In this document: piece by piece, positions 2,513 to 57,308 of the stretch
Layout of the letters: each line of letters starts with the position of its first letter
Numbering within the stretch: the first letter of the stretch is position 1
Source of the DNA: a virus
Lineage: Duplodnaviria > Heunggongvirae > Uroviricota > Caudoviricetes
DNA length: 64,000 nt
Virus record (IMG/VR): IMGVR_UViG_3300015214_000024
Coordinates: 73,787-137,786 of that record
Strand: one strand, 5' to 3'
Made by a program: the position numbers and the translations under genes
Notes under the pieces: generated by a model
What the model was told of the DNA's origin: nothing
Database searches by the model: none
What the model saw: only the letters and a program-made list of their open reading frames with translations

Positions 2513-2824
2513 GTGGCGAAATATTCTATGGATGATAAAATTCTCGTTGATCAATTTTATGAGATTTGGAACGGTCATCGTCGTGATAGTTCCCGATATC
2601 AGGATGAGCGTAGCCGTGGGTCCCTTAATGGCCACGCGATGATTAAAAAGTTGCAAAATAGCAAAGACCAGACTGCCCATTTGATTCGTGTTTGGTTTCA
2701 ATCATTGAGTGAAGAAGAGCAATGCTCAGTTGTTCGTTCCAGTATGGCGGATAGCACAATACACCGTGGTGTAAGCTTTTATTTTACTGATATTCATAAA
2801 ACATATAGGAAATTAATCAAATGA
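2513..2824 (+). CDS. Hypothetical protein
   Basis: 103-aa ORF; alternative ATG at 2528. Confidence 0.65.
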   Translation: MAKYSMDDKILVDQFYEIWNGHRRDSSRYQDERSRGSLNGHAMIKKLQNSKDQTAHLIRVWFQSLSEEEQCSVVRSSMADSTIHRGVSFYFTDIHKTYRKLIK

Positions 2825-3243
2825 CTGATATTAGTCAAGACACCATATTGGTTCAATTGGACAATCTAGTCAATAGCGTTGAGGCCAATATCGTCCCCAG
2901 TTACCTTCAAGGTAGTGATCGCGATAATATGGCCATCGAAGTCATAGAACGACTTAGATTGTTGTTAATCTTCTATCAGGAAGAATTGGATGAAGAAACA
3001 GTCAAACGGATATTTGACCAGGTACTCGTTCCTATCGTGGACTCATATCAGAAGTACCGTCTGAACGCCAGTAGGGAAATCTCATTCCACATTAAACTGG
3101 ATAGTGTTTGTAGACATTTAAGTCAACCCAAATGGGACAATGTTTGGACCCAGGCAATCGTCAATCATAATAGAACATATTGGTCAGAGCTCTACTATGG
3201 CGACAGTCCAATGGTGAAAAACAGCTTAGTGATTTGTGGATAA
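2821..3243 (+). CDS. Hypothetical protein, YxG-13 family
   Basis: Ends ELYYGDSPMVKNSLVICG*; paralog of the next gene. Confidence 0.75.
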   Translation: MTDISQDTILVQLDNLVNSVEANIVPSYLQGSDRDNMAIEVIERLRLLLIFYQEELDEETVKRIFDQVLVPIVDSYQKYRLNASREISFHIKLDSVCRHLSQPKWDNVWTQAIVNHNRTYWSELYYGDSPMVKNSLVICG

Positions 3244-3257
3244 AGGGATTGGATAAC

Positions 3258-3662
3258 GTGGATATTAGGAAAGAATTATATTATCTATACCGTGAGGCGG
3301 ATGATTTTATCTTTATCCAATATCCAGACAATCGGACTCGGGATAGTCGAATGATTCACTTGGCAGATAAAACATTATCATTGATTGAAGATCGCGGTGG
3401 TGAATTATATCAAAACGATTTGTATGAAATGTTTCGGCGAATCCTTTTGCCACTGGTGGATATTTGTATGAGCGGACAGCTCAGTGTAATGTCCCAACAT
3501 AAATTTGTTGATATTATTAGTAAAATTCTGGACTTTACCTATGATCCATTTTTCAGCGAAGTGTGGATCCAGTTAGTTATGGAAGATGCCAGCCCTTATT
3601 TGTCAAGTCTCTATATGGGCGATGATCCTGTGGTACTCAACAGTATGGTGATTTGTGGATAG
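3258..3662 (+). CDS. Hypothetical protein, YxG-13 family
   Basis: ORF 3180..3662; GTG 3258 follows AAGGGA. Ends SLYMGDDPVVLNSMVICG*. Confidence 0.75.
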   Translation: MDIRKELYYLYREADDFIFIQYPDNRTRDSRMIHLADKTLSLIEDRGGELYQNDLYEMFRRILLPLVDICMSGQLSVMSQHKFVDIISKILDFTYDPFFSEVWIQLVMEDASPYLSSLYMGDDPVVLNSMVICG

Positions 3663-4008
3663 AGGTTTTAAATATGGAGAACTAATGGTCATTAGTAGTG
3701 GTGGCGGATCTTCTATCTTGGAACAATTAGATAATATGATGACCAGTGTGCTGTTTGCTAATGGGCAGAGCAATCGGTATCAGGCTAAGTTTCTTCTCAA
3801 TAATCATACTAAAATCAATTATTGGACTGAACAATTAAAGTCCAGTGGACCAACCGGACCTTACTACACTATATTGGTGGAAATTTACGAAATACTGGAT
3901 ACGTGGTTGGGTGGATGGGCTACCTATTGGCAACACGTTAGTCCTGTGCTTTTCCCCTACCTGGGAGACGATCCAGAGATTAAATCCCTGGAAACTTTGA
4001 TGAAATAA
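3655..4008 (+). CDS. Hypothetical protein, YxG-13 family
   Basis: ILDTWLGGW; ends PYLGDDPEIKSLETLMK*. Confidence 0.7.
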   Translation: MDRGFKYGELMVISSGGGSSILEQLDNMMTSVLFANGQSNRYQAKFLLNNHTKINYWTEQLKSSGPTGPYYTILVEIYEILDTWLGGWATYWQHVSPVLFPYLGDDPEIKSLETLMK

Positions 4009-32605: not shown

Positions 32606-33637
32606 TTAAAGTGATAATGTTCTGTAGATATTCATTAGCAAATCTGAATCAATAGTATTACTATCGATTGAACTAATGTATTTCATAACAATGGAGTCAA
32701 CTGATTCAAGATCTGATTCTTCAACAGCCAAGTCATCATCCTGTTCTTCATAAACAGCACTAAGTGACAAATCTCTAGGGTCATAAGTCTTTTCTAGAAG
32801 ATCGCGCAAGTATGTTGACATTTCATATGTTAGAATCAAATCATTCTCAATTCTAATATATGTCATATCATCAATATATTTTGGAGGGTTCTTTAAAAGC
32901 TGTGAAAGTTTAATTTTTCGATACTTTGGCGCTTTTGGCCAAGATTTATATTGTGGAACTCCGCCCCATTCAAGCATACATATGCCGCGATCGTCATCCC
33001 AAGCGTCTGAAAAGTCGTGAGGAAAGCAGTTGCCAGTATAATGAATATTGCCTTTGATTTGTCTCTTATGGAAATGGCCTGAGAATACATATTCCGGCTT
33101 GGTGATATCTTCTGCTCGAAGTTCACCAGTGTCTGGCATCTCAACCATCGCATTCATTTTAAAATGCGGAAGCTCAAAATGTCCCATCATATACTTACAT
33201 TCAAGTTCTTTGACTTTTTTCCATTCGTCATTCACTAGCCACGGAACAATTGCTACTTGGCCTTCAAGGAAAATGTCTGATATGATATGTACATTGTCTA
33301 ATTGGCGACCAAACTCGATAGAATTAATTTCCCGTTTGTCGCGATAGTATAAGTCGTGGTTGCCAGTAATCAAATAAACATTTTTAAATGCTTTGCTGAG
33401 TCGCTCAATATTTGATATTGTATAGTTGATAGTGCTGACATTGATTCTTGCTCGGTTGTGGTGCCAATCACCATTGAAGAAACAAGTCTCTGCACCAAAC
33501 TTTTTAGCCTCTTCAATCATCCAGATAATGAAGTTTTCACAATCCACATTATGTTGGCGACTGTCATTGCTTTTCCCAAAGTGTATATCTGTAAAAATTA
33601 CAGCTTTTTCAAAAAGTTGATCAGTTGATACGTTCAT
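32606..33637 (-). CDS. 47: Recombination endonuclease nuclease subunit (gp47 / SbcD / Mre11-like)
   Basis: DIH, GDWHH, GNHD, GHFH metallophosphoesterase motifs; start reassigned to ATG 33637. Confidence 0.95.
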   Translation of the reverse strand: MNVSTDQLFEKAVIFTDIHFGKSNDSRQHNVDCENFIIWMIEEAKKFGAETCFFNGDWHHNRARINVSTINYTISNIERLSKAFKNVYLITGNHDLYYRDKREINSIEFGRQLDNVHIISDIFLEGQVAIVPWLVNDEWKKVKELECKYMMGHFELPHFKMNAMVEMPDTGELRAEDITKPEYVFSGHFHKRQIKGNIHYTGNCFPHDFSDAWDDDRGICMLEWGGVPQYKSWPKAPKYRKIKLSQLLKNPPKYIDDMTYIRIENDLILTYEMSTYLRDLLEKTYDPRDLSLSAVYEEQDDDLAVEESDLESVDSIVMKYISSIDSNTIDSDLLMNIYRTLSL

Positions 33638-33710
33638 GTATTTCTCTTTATTAGAAATTTCTACTAATGTTATATTAATGGTAGGCTGGCGAATAATCAA
33701 TATATTTTGG

Positions 33711-33926
33711 CTATATTTTTTTCCACATTGGATTATATGGATCACTACTTACATTGACGAATAATGTGCATCCCACTGGGTCGAACTGTATTTCGCCTAT
33801 GGATGGTGTCGAAACATAACCGTATCGAGTCTTGAACCCAATAACTTGATTCAAGTGTGGGAGATCGCCCCACTCTGGAAATGATCCAAATGTGGCATCT
33901 AGCCAATTTAATAGTCTTTTTTTCAC
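33711..33926 (-). CDS. Minigene C: leader plus capsid fragment QVIGFKTRYGY
   Basis: 3' part of ORF 33711..34169. GTG 33926 lies just after the upstream stop (ATG 33944 is an alternative). MKKRLLNWLDATFGSFP...NQVIGFKTRYGYV matches MCP EQVVGFTTRYGYL. Confidence 0.7.
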   Translation of the reverse strand: MKKRLLNWLDATFGSFPEWGDLPHLNQVIGFKTRYGYVSTPSIGEIQFDPVGCTLFVNVSSDPYNPMWKKI

Positions 33927-33930
33927 AGCA

Positions 33931-34794
33931 TTATTTCTCTTCATCAAAAAACAAATCAAACAAGTTCTCAACGAACGGTGTATATTTCTGTTTAGGTTTG
34001 CCTTCATTATTTTTTGCACGTTCATACTTGTCAAATTCACACATAACATTTTGCAAATCCTGTGCGTGGAACGGTTCGTCTTTAAAATGCTTGTTGACTT
34101 CTTTAAGTAATTTTTGCAAATGTAATAGCCAGTCGTCAGCCATCCAGGCATCATTTTTATTTCTACCAAAAACCCGATTTAAACCACGTTGTGATCCTGG
34201 TCCTGGTGCGGCCCAAGTCCACCAGTCAGATGCATTTTTTAATATTGGAGTATATTTCATATCAGCTACTACTTGAGCACCTGTAAAGCTTCCTACTCCA
34301 TAGCAAGAAAGTAATTTTTTATGGAAAGATTCCAAGGTATCATTCTTAGTGGGTCTTATTTTTGCTCGATTTTCCCACATTGGATTGAGTAGTTTTTGAA
34401 CAAGAAAATCTTGTTTTGGGCCAGACCAGTTTGGAGTGGCAATCATATATGCTGGATTGTAAATTTTAAGGTTTTTTGATTGTCGCATTGCCACCATATT
34501 GAGGAATTTGTCTGGATCCCAAGGAACCGGATATCCAAGGTCGCTCATTGAATCAATGTTATTTAAGGCCATTCTAGCTACAGCCATAGCGAACCACAGA
34601 TCTGGATCTAAATTATTAGGTTCTCGCCAGTTATCATTAATCCAAATAGTTACTCGGTCGTCTTCCCGACGCATATTACAAAACCGGTAGGTTTCAATAA
34701 TAGTGTCACCAATATATGGTACACCATTTAATTTTGCTTTACGGGCCTCCTCCCGTTTAGTGATGAACTCTACAACATCCTGATCTCGCATCAT
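33931..34794 (-). CDS. aGPT-Pplase clade 1 / 5-hmdU DNA kinase helical-domain-like protein
   Basis: YRFCNMRREDDRVT, GPGSQRGL, LQNVMCEFDKY motifs. Confidence 0.7.
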   Translation of the reverse strand: MMRDQDVVEFITKREEARKAKLNGVPYIGDTIIETYRFCNMRREDDRVTIWINDNWREPNNLDPDLWFAMAVARMALNNIDSMSDLGYPVPWDPDKFLNMVAMRQSKNLKIYNPAYMIATPNWSGPKQDFLVQKLLNPMWENRAKIRPTKNDTLESFHKKLLSCYGVGSFTGAQVVADMKYTPILKNASDWWTWAAPGPGSQRGLNRVFGRNKNDAWMADDWLLHLQKLLKEVNKHFKDEPFHAQDLQNVMCEFDKYERAKNNEGKPKQKYTPFVENLFDLFFDEEK

Positions 34795-35051
34795 TCTGAC
34801 TCACCATTAGGTTCATTATCATCTTCATCGTTTTCCTGGCTTCCTGTATATTTGGATCTTAATGAAAAAATAGAGGCAGTCGGACCAGTCATTGGTTGAA
34901 CCCCGCATATATCGTGAGCAATGATAGATGGCATCACTCTTCGAATAATTGGCAAAATAACTTTATCATATTGAGGTTTACACGCCTCATTTAATGATGG
35001 AAAAGTACCAAACCAATATTTCAACCAATTTTTGATTTTATTGATTATCAT
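34791..35051 (-). CDS. Minigene B: leader plus Gol-region capsid fragment
   Basis: KVILPIIRRVMPSIIAHDICGVQPMTGPTASIFSLRSKY is identical at 25 of 39 positions to this window's MCP. Confidence 0.85.
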   Translation of the reverse strand: MIINKIKNWLKYWFGTFPSLNEACKPQYDKVILPIIRRVMPSIIAHDICGVQPMTGPTASIFSLRSKYTGSQENDEDDNEPNGESE

Positions 35052-35292
35052 CGTGATGTTTCTTTAATAGTTCTGCCATTGTGAATGATTTGCCAGTTGT
35101 CATATCGACAATTTTTGTATTAGACAGATTGATAGTCAATGGAACATACGGACAATAGAAAGCAGAAGCATCGAACATCTGCTTTCCTTTGTAACCCAGG
35201 ATCAAACTAAAATGGTCATCAATATTAATTATTCGTCCGAAGTGTTTTTCGAACCAATTCTTAATTTTATTTAGATGGTGTTTCACTTTCAT
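35038..35292 (-). CDS. Minigene A: leader plus capsid fragment GYKG-x4-DASAFYCPYVPL
   Basis: ORF 35038..35346; likely start ATG 35292. Matches MCP GYKGEGTEVDAAAYYCPYIPL. Confidence 0.8.
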   Translation of the reverse strand: MKVKHHLNKIKNWFEKHFGRIINIDDHFSLILGYKGKQMFDASAFYCPYVPLTINLSNTKIVDMTTGKSFTMAELLKKHHDDNQ

Positions 35293-36208
35293 TAGGTTCG
35301 GCTTCTTTCTTAACTTTACCAAACATTCCCTTTTTACCATCAGCAACTTGCGGCATCATTCTGCGTGGCTTGTTTTTCTCTCTAAAATGACCATTGCTAA
35401 TGTGCCATTGGTCACTAGTTTCAAGCTCATTAGTAATTTGTCGACTCATTGATGGCGCTTGTCCACTATTTTCTAACAGGTCATCGCGCAAATCACGATC
35501 TTTCTTTTCAGTATTGAGAACACGTTTGAAGGTGTTATATACACACGTGGTTAAGAACGCGAATGGGTTTAACATAGTCCCGCGGGACTCGTTGAATTGA
35601 AGACCAACCATTGAGAGTTGGAGTAATGCTGAACTTTTCATATCGTCTAGATATGAATAATTTCGCCAGTTTGACTTCTGCCCAATCTTTTCAACCAATA
35701 GATAATACATTTTGCCAAGTTTCGCAGTGGTCCTACCGTGATCGGTTGAGAATTGACCATCCTGGGTGTGATGACTCTTTAGAACCGTTCGGACATCATC
35801 ACCATCAAATATTACGTGAATAAATGGTGGAAAATTAACTTTCATATATCCATCTGAGAGTTTTTTCTTCATTTTGTCATCGGGCCAGTTTGGATCAAGC
35901 GGTATGTGGTCAAATGACATAATTCGTATCACCAAGTCGTCTTTAGTCACAACGGGATCAGTTTCACCATATTCTTTAACCAATCGTTTTTCTCGGGTTT
36001 CAATCAAGCTTTCAATCCACGAATCAAAATCAACAAACATTGTTTTTTTGAATAAGTCTCGATTTGTTAGTATTTCGGGATTGTCGATAATAGTATCATA
36101 GTCTGTAAATTTTGGATCTTCATAATAACAGTAGGTCATTTTACTCTTGTGTATTTCTTTGACCAGATCCTTGTTGTTTAGGTAATTGGTAGTTGATCGT
36201 TTTGCCAT
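35267..36208 (-). CDS. 55: Late-transcription sigma factor (T4 gp55-like)
   Basis: NYLNNKDL, NWRNYSYLDDM, NPFAFLT...EKK motifs; 55-47-46 synteny. Confidence 0.85.
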   Translation of the reverse strand: MAKRSTTNYLNNKDLVKEIHKSKMTYCYYEDPKFTDYDTIIDNPEILTNRDLFKKTMFVDFDSWIESLIETREKRLVKEYGETDPVVTKDDLVIRIMSFDHIPLDPNWPDDKMKKKLSDGYMKVNFPPFIHVIFDGDDVRTVLKSHHTQDGQFSTDHGRTTAKLGKMYYLLVEKIGQKSNWRNYSYLDDMKSSALLQLSMVGLQFNESRGTMLNPFAFLTTCVYNTFKRVLNTEKKDRDLRDDLLENSGQAPSMSRQITNELETSDQWHISNGHFREKNKPRRMMPQVADGKKGMFGKVKKEAEPNESETPSK

Positions 36209-36391
36209 TCAGTAGGGTCTCTCAGTTCTGCTTGACGGGTTGATGTGAATATGTTATCACCGCGCCATAAATATCTGTCTTATAGATAGATTGTAGTATA
36301 TTGTGGTCAAGAAAGTCGATATTTCTGGACACAGGAAAGCTCTGATTAAGTGATTTTTAGCAAATAAATAGTGTATTAGAGGGTAGGTTAG

Positions 36392-36991
36392 ATGAAAATT
36401 ACAGAAGTTAGCAACTTTGATGGTAAGAAAACGGCAGTATTTTCATTTGCCAGGATGAACCCGCCGACTGTTGGGCATCAAAAATTAATTGGTAAAGTAA
36501 TATCAGAAGCTCAGGCAATGTCATCTCCATATTTTATTATGATTAGTCATACTGTTGATAAGAAAAAGAATCCTTTACCATATGACATAAAAATGAAATT
36601 TATTAAATCCTGTTTTCCGTCTATCAAATTTATGGATGCGGTAACTTTGGAAAAAGATGGTGAAACCAAAACGGTGAAAACACCATTTGAGATGTTAGAA
36701 TATCTATGCCAGCAAGGATATCGAAATGCCATAATGGTGGTTGGTGCAGATCGTGTTGAGAATTTTGAAAATATGATCAGACCCTATATTGGTAAAGATT
36801 TTGATTTAGACTCCTTCAAAGTAATTAGTGCTGGTGAACGGACTGGTGAGGAAACTAATGAACAAGCTTCAGGAACTTTAGTTAGACAGCTTGTTAAAAT
36901 GGATATGAAAGACGAGTTTGATAAGTTCATACCAACCACCAATCAAAAGATAAAAGACGAACTTTTTGACGAATTAAAAAAATACTTATAA
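36392..36991 (+). CDS. Cytidyltransferase-like (HxGH-type) nucleotidyltransferase
   Basis: FARMNPPTVGHQKL, VVGADRV, ISAGER, ASGTLVR motifs. Confidence 0.8.
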   Translation: MKITEVSNFDGKKTAVFSFARMNPPTVGHQKLIGKVISEAQAMSSPYFIMISHTVDKKKNPLPYDIKMKFIKSCFPSIKFMDAVTLEKDGETKTVKTPFEMLEYLCQQGYRNAIMVVGADRVENFENMIRPYIGKDFDLDSFKVISAGERTGEETNEQASGTLVRQLVKMDMKDEFDKFIPTTNQKIKDELFDELKKYL

Positions 36992-37006
36992 AGGAATTCG
37001 TAATGA

Positions 37007-56060: not shown

Positions 56061-56108
56061 ACATAAATATTAACATAAAAGAGCTTTACAAAAGGAGAGC
56101 TATAGAAA

Positions 56109-57308
56109 ATGTCTAAACTCTTTGAATCCAAATGGCAGCAAACCAAAGAGACCCTTCTTGAAGGTCTCGAAGGTCAACGCCGCAATACTATGGGTGTAGT
56201 CCTCGACAACACACGCAACAGCCTTGGCGCTGGCCGTGGTTTCTTGGCAGAATCCGCAACACCAGGTGCAACATCAGCAGGTAACGTAGCAACCCTTAAT
56301 AAGGTTATCCTCCCAGTTATCCGCCGTGTTATGCCAACCGTTATCGCTAACGAATTGATTGGCGTTCAGCCAATGACTGGCCCAGTTGGTCAGATCCACA
56401 CTTTGCGCGTTCGTTACGCTGATACTTTCGGTTCACCAACCGCAGTTACCGCTGGTACTGAAGCCCTCGGTCCATTCGAAATGGCTAAGTTCTACTCAGG
56501 TAACGGTGATAGTGCAAGCCCAGCAGCAGCTGATACTTCAACTCTTGAAGGTTTGCCAGGTAACCGTATCCAAGTTCAAGTCCTTCGTGAAACCGTCGAA
56601 GCTAAGACCCGCAAGCTATCAGCTCGCTGGACCCCAGAAGCTTCACAAGACGCAATGGCACAACAAGGCATTGATCTTGAAACTGAAATCACCGCTGCTT
56701 TGGCACAGGAAATCACCGCAGAAATCGACCAAACAATTTTGGCTAACCTCCGCGCTCTTCCAGGTGCTCCAGCCGTAACTTACGATCAGAACCTCGTTTC
56801 TGGTACTGCAACTTACGTTGGTGACGAACACGCTGCACTTGCAACCTTAATTATGCACCGCGCTAACGTTATCGCTCAGCGTACACGTCGTGGCGTTGGT
56901 AACTGGGTTGTTGTTTCCCCAACTGCTTTGACTGTATTGCAGTCAGCTTCAACTTCAGCTTTCGCTCGTACCACTGAAGGTACATTCCAAGGCCCAACAA
57001 ACACCAAGTTTGTCGGCGTTTTGAACAGCAGCATGAAAGTTTATGTTGACCAGTTTGCTAACGACACAACTCCAGTTCTCGTCGGTTACAAGGGCGAAGG
57101 TACAGAAGTTGACGCAGCAGCATATTACTGCCCATACATTCCATTGATGAGCTCAGGTATCCTAACAGATCCTAACACACTTGAACAAGTTGTTGGTTTC
57201 ACCACACGTTATGGTTACTTGGCACTCACCAACAGCGCAAGCAGCTTCGGTAACGCAGCTGACTACTTGGGCTTGATCGGTATGTCAGCAAATACCCGTT
57301 TCTTCTAA
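56109..57308 (+). CDS. 23: Major capsid protein (gp23-like)
   Basis: IRRVMP..IA..LIGVQPMTGP, KTRKLSARWT, EITAEID, GYKG..DAAAYYCPY, GFTTRYG; high-expression codon bias. Confidence 0.97.
   Translation: MSKLFESKWQQTKETLLEGLEGQRRNTMGVVLDNTRNSLGAGRGFLAESATPGATSAGNVATLNKVILPVIRRVMPTVIANELIGVQPMTGPVGQIHTLRVRYADTFGSPTAVTAGTEALGPFEMAKFYSGNGDSASPAAADTSTLEGLPGNRIQVQVLRETVEAKTRKLSARWTPEASQDAMAQQGIDLETEITAALAQEITAEIDQTILANLRALPGAPAVTYDQNLVSGTATYVGDEHAALATLIMHRANVIAQRTRRGVGNWVVVSPTALTVLQSASTSAFARTTEGTFQGPTNTKFVGVLNSSMKVYVDQFANDTTPVLVGYKGEGTEVDAAAYYCPYIPLMSSGILTDPNTLEQVVGFTTRYGYLALTNSASSFGNAADYLGLIGMSANTRFF

Follow-up and report, generated by a model that had tools for sequence, protein, structure and literature searches.

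Head-protein fragments on a common leader: a row of minigenes, one with a Gol-equivalent module, in an uncultured T4-like phage

Of the T4-type capsid protein, Gol is the one piece for which both recognition by a host defence and binding to EF-Tu are known. It is a 29-residue stretch of the major capsid protein (MCP) gp23, which we take to be residues 94-122. In a 455-kb uncultured T4-like phage (whole virus record IMGVR_UViG_3300015214_000024), the equivalent stretch is also found in a small gene of its own, which raises the question of why a phage would keep a fragment of a capsid protein as a separate product. Here, we analysed a 64,000-nucleotide stretch of this genome (positions 73,787 to 137,786 of the record, hereafter the window; all coordinates refer to it unless a contig is named), together with the complete record and related contigs.

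A separate gene with a Gol-equivalent module

The gene, here called minigene B (34791..35051, minus strand), is an intact open reading frame of 86 codons plus a stop with an ATG start, as seen in the ORF list and its translation, and the preliminary description of it as a stand-alone gene was correct. It overlaps its neighbours on both sides: the start lies within the end of the upstream minigene A, and the stop shares an ATGA with the start of the next gene. Three parts can be told apart in the 86-residue product. The leader (residues 1-26; 34974..35051, minus strand) has a K-I-K-x-W-x(5)-G-x-F type motif that is common to A and to a further minigene, C. It is followed by an MCP-derived module (residues 29-68; 34848..34967, minus strand) equivalent to T4 gp23 about 92-131, a span that comprises Gol 94-122 plus the next strand, and by an acidic C-terminal tail (residues 69-86; 34794..34847, minus strand), which was read from the sequence; the B orthologues end likewise in D/E-rich tails in the orthologue alignment. 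AF2 prediction of B with this alignment gave no fold (pLDDT 54.8); residues 2-14 were modelled, with low confidence, as a helix, and the acidic tail as disordered (pLDDT <50). An Rfam search of 33000-37000 gave no match, and no intron or RNA element was found there that would suggest splicing. A prohead-protease site of the LxE type after the leader was considered and rejected: the L-N-E of B is not conserved in the orthologues (FDE, FEK). In the orthologues P0011, P0012 and P0013 (L007 4001-4288, L011 4001-4273), the acidic tail is replaced by a stretch with MEQLLENTRKQL, which shows a weak likeness to the motif VVLDNTRNSL of the MCP propeptide (7/16, E 0.034) and, judged by this, may be a second MCP fragment behind the Gol module.

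The parent type of the fragments is present in the same genome as an intact gp23-type MCP of 399 aa (56109..57308, plus strand; Pfam Gp23, E 4e-88), 21 kb from minigene B. Its segments matching the minigenes lie at 56298-56417 (B), 57060-57146 (A) and 57180-57224 (C), all on the plus strand, and no MCP-like pieces other than A, B and C, which lie within 1.6 kb, were found outside the MCP gene by tblastn of the whole 455-kb genome. The close match of B to an MCP segment, initially counted as 25 of 39 residues, was borne out by BLASTP, in which B residues 29-68 and MCP residues 64-103 share 25/40 identities and 34/40 positives (E 1e-17). B also matches the PHROG ‘major head protein’ (E 1e-16) and scores 62.1 bits (E 8e-17) against Pfam Gp23 (PF07068), well above the gathering cut-off of 24.4, with the same invariant residues as gp23-type MCPs at 20 positions. 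Unlike these proteins, however, it lacks the spine helix, the A domain and the remaining P-domain strands; the match covers only profile positions 3-49 of 376, without the HK97-type fold, which rules B out as a capsid subunit. In the 455-kb record, tblastn detected no gp24-like vertex paralogue of the MCP, and the vertices of this phage may be built from the MCP itself.

The term Gol-like, used in the preliminary description, also proved apt. B residues 27-68 correspond to T4 gp23 residues 90-131 (20/42 identities, E about 1e-8, phmmer against PDB chains; T4 numbering from 6uzc/7vs5), and the 29-residue stretch is therefore covered completely. A closer relation to the T4 type than to the resident MCP, which had also been claimed, applies to the 11-mer IAHDICGVQPM (10/11 against T4, 7/11 against the resident MCP) but not to the module as a whole, which shares 27/40 residues with the MCPs of Rak2-like jumbo phages, 25/40 with the resident MCP and 20/42 with T4. 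These values give no support to the foreign or T4-type origin suggested earlier, and neither does the variation among B orthologues at the very positions relied on (DIC/DII, GVQ/GVS).

In T4 gp23, residues 66-105 make up an N-terminal region that is flexible and turns into the N-arm upon expansion, and linker 1 of the I-domain begins at residue 132 (PMC9546572). The B module thus comprises the first P-domain strand and, ahead of it, the end of the N-arm, and its C-terminal end coincides with a natural boundary. A T4 peptide of the 29-residue Gol length is active alone (PMC3014915). The difference from T4 is that Gol there is an internal part of a late-made capsid protein of 521 aa and not a gene, whereas B is a protein of its own, of 86 aa, in which the module is joined to a leader and an acidic tail, and is encoded in a unit without a late-promoter box.

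The Gol module of ~40 residues was found with the same boundaries in many other small phage proteins, fused to unrelated partners, and Atlas clusters of such Gp23-fragment proteins have 72-204 members. Several of the partners have a motif of the type D-A-x-x-F-K-L-x-W. In P0014, P0015, P0016, P0020, P0022 and P0025, all from other phages, a Gol-type module is combined with a different small domain, which has a V-x-F-x4-D-A-x2-F-K-L-x-W type motif and stands on either side of the module. The genes for Gol-module proteins lie beside DnaJ/ClpB genes, right after the MCP gene or among nucleotide-metabolism genes; the one directly behind an MCP gene (L094) occupies the place of gp24 in T4.

An expandable row of leader and head-protein fragments

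Minigene B is flanked by two genes of similar build. Minigene A (35038..35292, minus strand; 84 aa from the ATG at 35292) consists of the leader and a C-terminal stretch of the MCP (GYKG...FYCPYVPL), matching MCP residues 318-346 (E 5e-8, BLASTP) and scoring 29.4 bits with Pfam Gp23, above the cut-off. Minigene C (33711..33944, minus strand; 77 aa) consists of the leader, the MCP stretch IGFKTRYGY and a conserved tail that is not derived from the MCP; its match to MCP residues 358-372 (E 1e-5 pairwise, 0.31 genome-wide) is weak on its own. The tail of C (33711-33812) reads G-D-x-x-F-D-x4-T-L-F-V-N-V-S-x-D-P-x-N-P-x-W and fell in ‘phage tail-like trimerisation region’ clusters in the Atlas feature search (0.93), without confirmation by Pfam. 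A complex prediction of A, C and B together, bearing on the idea that the three might rebuild a sub-domain of the MCP, gave a score of 0.00, which counts neither for nor against that idea. On the coding strand, the cargos come in the order C-terminal piece, N-terminal piece and last strand of the MCP, and are thus not colinear with it; A, B and C each begin with a separate start codon, which overlaps the preceding gene at its 3' end.

The leader is what unites the three genes. A leader HMM scores only A, B and C in the 455-kb genome (E 2e-13 to 2e-10; B 2e-13, C 2e-10), and the leader profile, when searched against 1.84 billion proteins, recovered only family members, a variant with a portal fragment and a single repeat protein (P0063, 332 aa), whose match was judged spurious. 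An origin of the leader from the MCP propeptide was rejected, with E values of at least 5 for the leader HMM against 78 MCP N-termini and an hhalign probability of 0.2. Outside the window, an ORF at G000:C1 230767-231093 (plus strand) has a C-terminal leader-like motif, KGWLTFNFGSF (leader HMM E 0.0024); this borderline resemblance may be due to chance.

The row is set between two conserved genes. A gp55-like late sigma factor (35267..36208, minus strand; phrog_12791, ‘sigma factor for late transcription’, E 9e-70) is the first gene of the unit, and its 3' end overlaps the start of A. After the row follows a gp47-like Mre11-type nuclease (32606..33637, minus strand), whose likely start at 33637 was taken from the ORF and the context of its orthologues; these are 343-aa genes with Pfam Metallophos, succeeded by a gp46 AAA_23 gene. 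In this genome only, a 287-aa gene with the helical domain of a 5-hmdU DNA kinase (33931..34794, minus strand; PF18723, E 7e-36) stands between B and C. Since it is absent from this place in all related contigs, and in the contig of a strain 90-95% alike 33893 is followed immediately by 34817, the gene is a local insertion, which suggests, from the comparison of contigs, that a thymidine-hypermodification gene was gained recently.

About 10 full-length small orthologues of B (80-124 aa, 58-73% identity) were found on contigs of up to 207 kb, always between gp55 and gp47. The gene order gp55, A, B, C, gp47, gp46 recurs in eight related loci (L003-L007 and L009-L011; L008 is a second copy of the L007 contig type, and L100 is counted in addition), with orthologues of A and C holding the same positions, and the row is tightly packed or overlapping with its neighbours in the window and in the related loci alike. 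Its size varies: three genes are present here and 3 to 5 among relatives. In L011, a fourth member, D (3627-3860, 77 aa), has a tail that matches residues 11-47 of the prohead-core protein (E 1e-6), an acidic protein whose gene in the window is flanked by those for the portal and the prohead protease (phrog ‘virion structural protein’). L100 has five members, with the extra genes at 3001-3141 and 2778-3011. The extra gene of 46 aa combines a leader almost identical to that of the neighbouring B with the portal motif YNPMxMLEDYFF, which corresponds to residues 332-351 of the portal protein in the window (E 6e-7). Depending on the phage, the common leader thus carries stretches of the MCP, the portal or the prohead-core protein, and the additional genes in L011 and L100 indicate that new members arise by copying the leader onto a new head-protein fragment. 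In L007, FYCPHIPL and SFTTRYG occur together in minigene A (3756-4004), in the order found in MCP residues 318-372, and minigene C lacks the FKTRYGY piece; the boundaries of the cargo therefore shift between neighbouring minigenes.

Beyond these relatives, megablast of the region against cultured phages gave no match, and no C-type minigene was found in 50,697 phage records, in which the matches listed for B and A were all full-length MCP or vertex genes. In a scan of IMG/VR with the B alignment, all of the 80 matches listed were full-length MCP genes, with no minigenes among them, and word-index searches for homologues of A and C recovered almost only the query proteins themselves. Taken together, we are confident that B is one unit of an expandable row of minigenes, each composed of a leader and a head-protein fragment.

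Selection and expected timing

Pairs of B orthologues are saturated at synonymous sites (pS 0.56-0.77), with pN at 0.17-0.36. Within the module, 25/40 positions are conserved in at least 90% of the orthologues, and 20 of these have the residue of the MCP clade; the MCP segment itself is nearly invariant within the clade of this phage. Selection on B thus acts at the protein level. The module and the resident MCP segment are 58% identical in nucleotides, agree at 13/40 third codon positions, use the same codon for 9/25 identical residues and have a longest exact run of 11 nt. The mismatch at third positions and the short longest run imply that the likeness is held at the protein level, with no recent copying; by this codon comparison, it is old, and a recent copy or gene conversion is ruled against. 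Scored with Pfam Gp23, the 42 residues of the B module reach 58.9 bits and the corresponding MCP segment 54.8; for A, the values are 30.9 against 30.7. The A and B modules are as consensus-like as the working MCP, and have not drifted despite their place outside the capsid fold. There is little doubt that minigene B is a real protein-coding gene under selection, built of a leader, a Gol-equivalent module and an acidic tail.

The octamer NATAAATA is the most enriched upstream of ORFs in the genome (18-fold) and was read as the late-promoter box, with AATAAATA as its commonest form genome-wide; the exact T4 form, TATAAATA, occurs once in the window. A box of the form CATAAATA lies ahead of the MCP gene (56062-56069), and further boxes were seen at 36266-36273 and 36363-36370. 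No NATAAATA box is present on the minus strand between 28133 and 48074. The block gp55-A-B-C-gp47-gp46, having no late promoter, is therefore probably expressed before the head genes, as judged solely by the absence of the promoter motif. One RNA library (run X5) yielded contigs that cover gp55, A and B, although such contigs cannot prove transcription.

Possible roles of the row

As a tentative and somewhat doubtful reading, we hypothesize that B is a peptide mimic, made early and directed against a host component that reads the invariant capsid stretch. B would be produced ahead of the capsid protein as a largely unfolded free peptide, and would compete by filling the host component that reads the invariant stretch of every gp23-type capsid protein. 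The most concrete candidate targets would be domains II-III of EF-Tu, or a defence sensor that uses EF-Tu or reads the peptide. Pre-loaded with B, such a reader would already be blunted or diverted by the time the real capsid protein is made, and the sibling minigenes would have the same role for other head-protein stretches. A host-directed target is suggested by the non-late position, by the known host reading of this peptide and by the lack of closeness to the phage's own MCP; since B is no closer to this MCP than to distant ones, the target would be generic rather than specific to the resident protein. In T4, the 29-residue piece of gp23 defines Gol and suffices to bind EF-Tu domains II-III and to license Lit; it is the most conserved region of gp23, and EF-Tu binding has been proposed for all T4-type phages (PMC3014915). 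The Avs7 sensor binds the MCP and recruits EF-Tu via the same domains II-III (PMC13581612). The predicted lack of a fold was counted toward free-peptide behaviour, and the constant boundaries of the Gol module on unrelated carriers toward its autonomy.

In T4, free Gol switches Lit on, not off. By analogy, a plain copy of Gol could be harmful to the phage in a lit+ host, which weighs against the mimic. Pfam searches revealed neither a Lit (PF10463) nor an EF-Tu (PF00009) gene in the phage genome. For the cargos of the siblings (MCP C-terminal strands, portal motif, prohead-core N-terminus), we know of no host reader and of no link to EF-Tu, and an explanation by EF-Tu only therefore cannot cover the minigene family. 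It also counts against the mimic that the Avs sensors known so far do not bind short peptides but hold entire folds across extended surfaces (PMC13581612). Furthermore, all cargos seen with the leader derive from prohead components (three stretches of the MCP, portal 332-351, core protein 11-47), which an assembly-directed role fits equally well. This prohead origin is central to the main rival of the host-directed mimic, interference with head assembly, where B and its siblings would be dominant-negative fragments that enter or cap proheads via native-like contacts. We consider interference rather unlikely, whether the target would be co-infecting gp23-type phages and satellites or the premature nucleation of the phage's own heads, on which the fragments would act as a brake. 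The N-terminal arm of T4 gp23 mediates extensive contacts within and between capsomers (PMC9546572), protein fragments commonly inhibit their parent by native-like binding (PMC10769210), and a consensus-like B that is no closer to the resident MCP than to others would suit a broad agent against competitors. One unrelated Gol-module gene also lies directly behind the MCP gene (L094). Such fragments would, however, threaten the phage's own heads too, and the row is located in a non-late unit apart from the head genes.

The same prohead-only set of cargos would suit a positive role, in which B is a helper of assembly or folding, or a minor prohead component; this seems quite improbable, and so do the particular routes by which capsid protein would be handed to a chaperone or nucleation site, such as GroEL/gp31-type folding or portal-core initiation. 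In L092, a Gol-module family has genes for DnaJ, ClpB and peptide deformylase as neighbours, and the contact between Gol and EF-Tu may serve the translation and folding of gp23 (PMC3014915). On the other hand, close relatives differ in the membership of the row (3 to 5 genes), as they seldom do in essential assembly factors, and well-studied T4-type phages assemble without such genes. The position outside the late head operon also argues against a helper, as do the absence of C-type minigenes from the 50,697 phage records and the restriction of the matches listed there for B to full-length MCP or vertex genes. The least probable of the readings is that the minigenes are functionless debris: either a capsid gene was duplicated or captured and left them behind, or recombination in a hyperplastic region produced them as by-products. 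Variability between gp55 and gp47 is indeed seen, with a gene inserted here and a minigene number that changes between relatives. Yet no lineage has a broken ORF although synonymous divergence is saturated, the module is conserved at 25/40 positions with a Pfam score equal to that of the working MCP, and the fragments are not colinear with the MCP, each having its own start and leader. The debris reading is already disfavoured on these grounds, and its chance of being right is very small.

Capsid-derived genes with activity against assembly or with restriction activity are known from other mobile elements, namely the truncated Gag p22 of yeast Ty1 and mouse Fv1, which are long truncations. B resembles them as a capsid-derived gene kept as a separate short product, but differs in being a 40-residue stretch on a carrier, arrayed with portal and core fragments, with a role that is so far putative. 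The inhibitory fragments of FragFold (PMC10769210) are likewise short native stretches that are free in the cell and expected to bind the partner of their parent; those are laboratory constructs, whereas the B row is natural, conserved and arrayed. In the literature searched, no account of natural minigenes made from capsid fragments was found, the nearest being the work on T4 Gol and on engineered fragments (PMC10769210). The anatomy of the row is robust and, as far as the literature was searched, undescribed.

With due caution, we propose that arrays of tiny genes could serve huge T4-like phages as a toolkit of peptide mimics against host sensors of the core phage proteome or against the head assembly of rivals, in which each gene would display one of the best-conserved head peptides, from capsid, portal or core, on a common carrier, and duplication of the leader would add members. 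Bacterial sensors have recently been shown to target the conserved core of phage head proteins. If the proposal is true, making free copies of invariant head stretches before the real proteins would be a new phage strategy, which could serve counter-defence, the takeover of host factors or warfare between phages, and the minigenes would supply natural peptides, already tested by evolution, as ligands or inhibitors for capsid assembly or for immune sensors.
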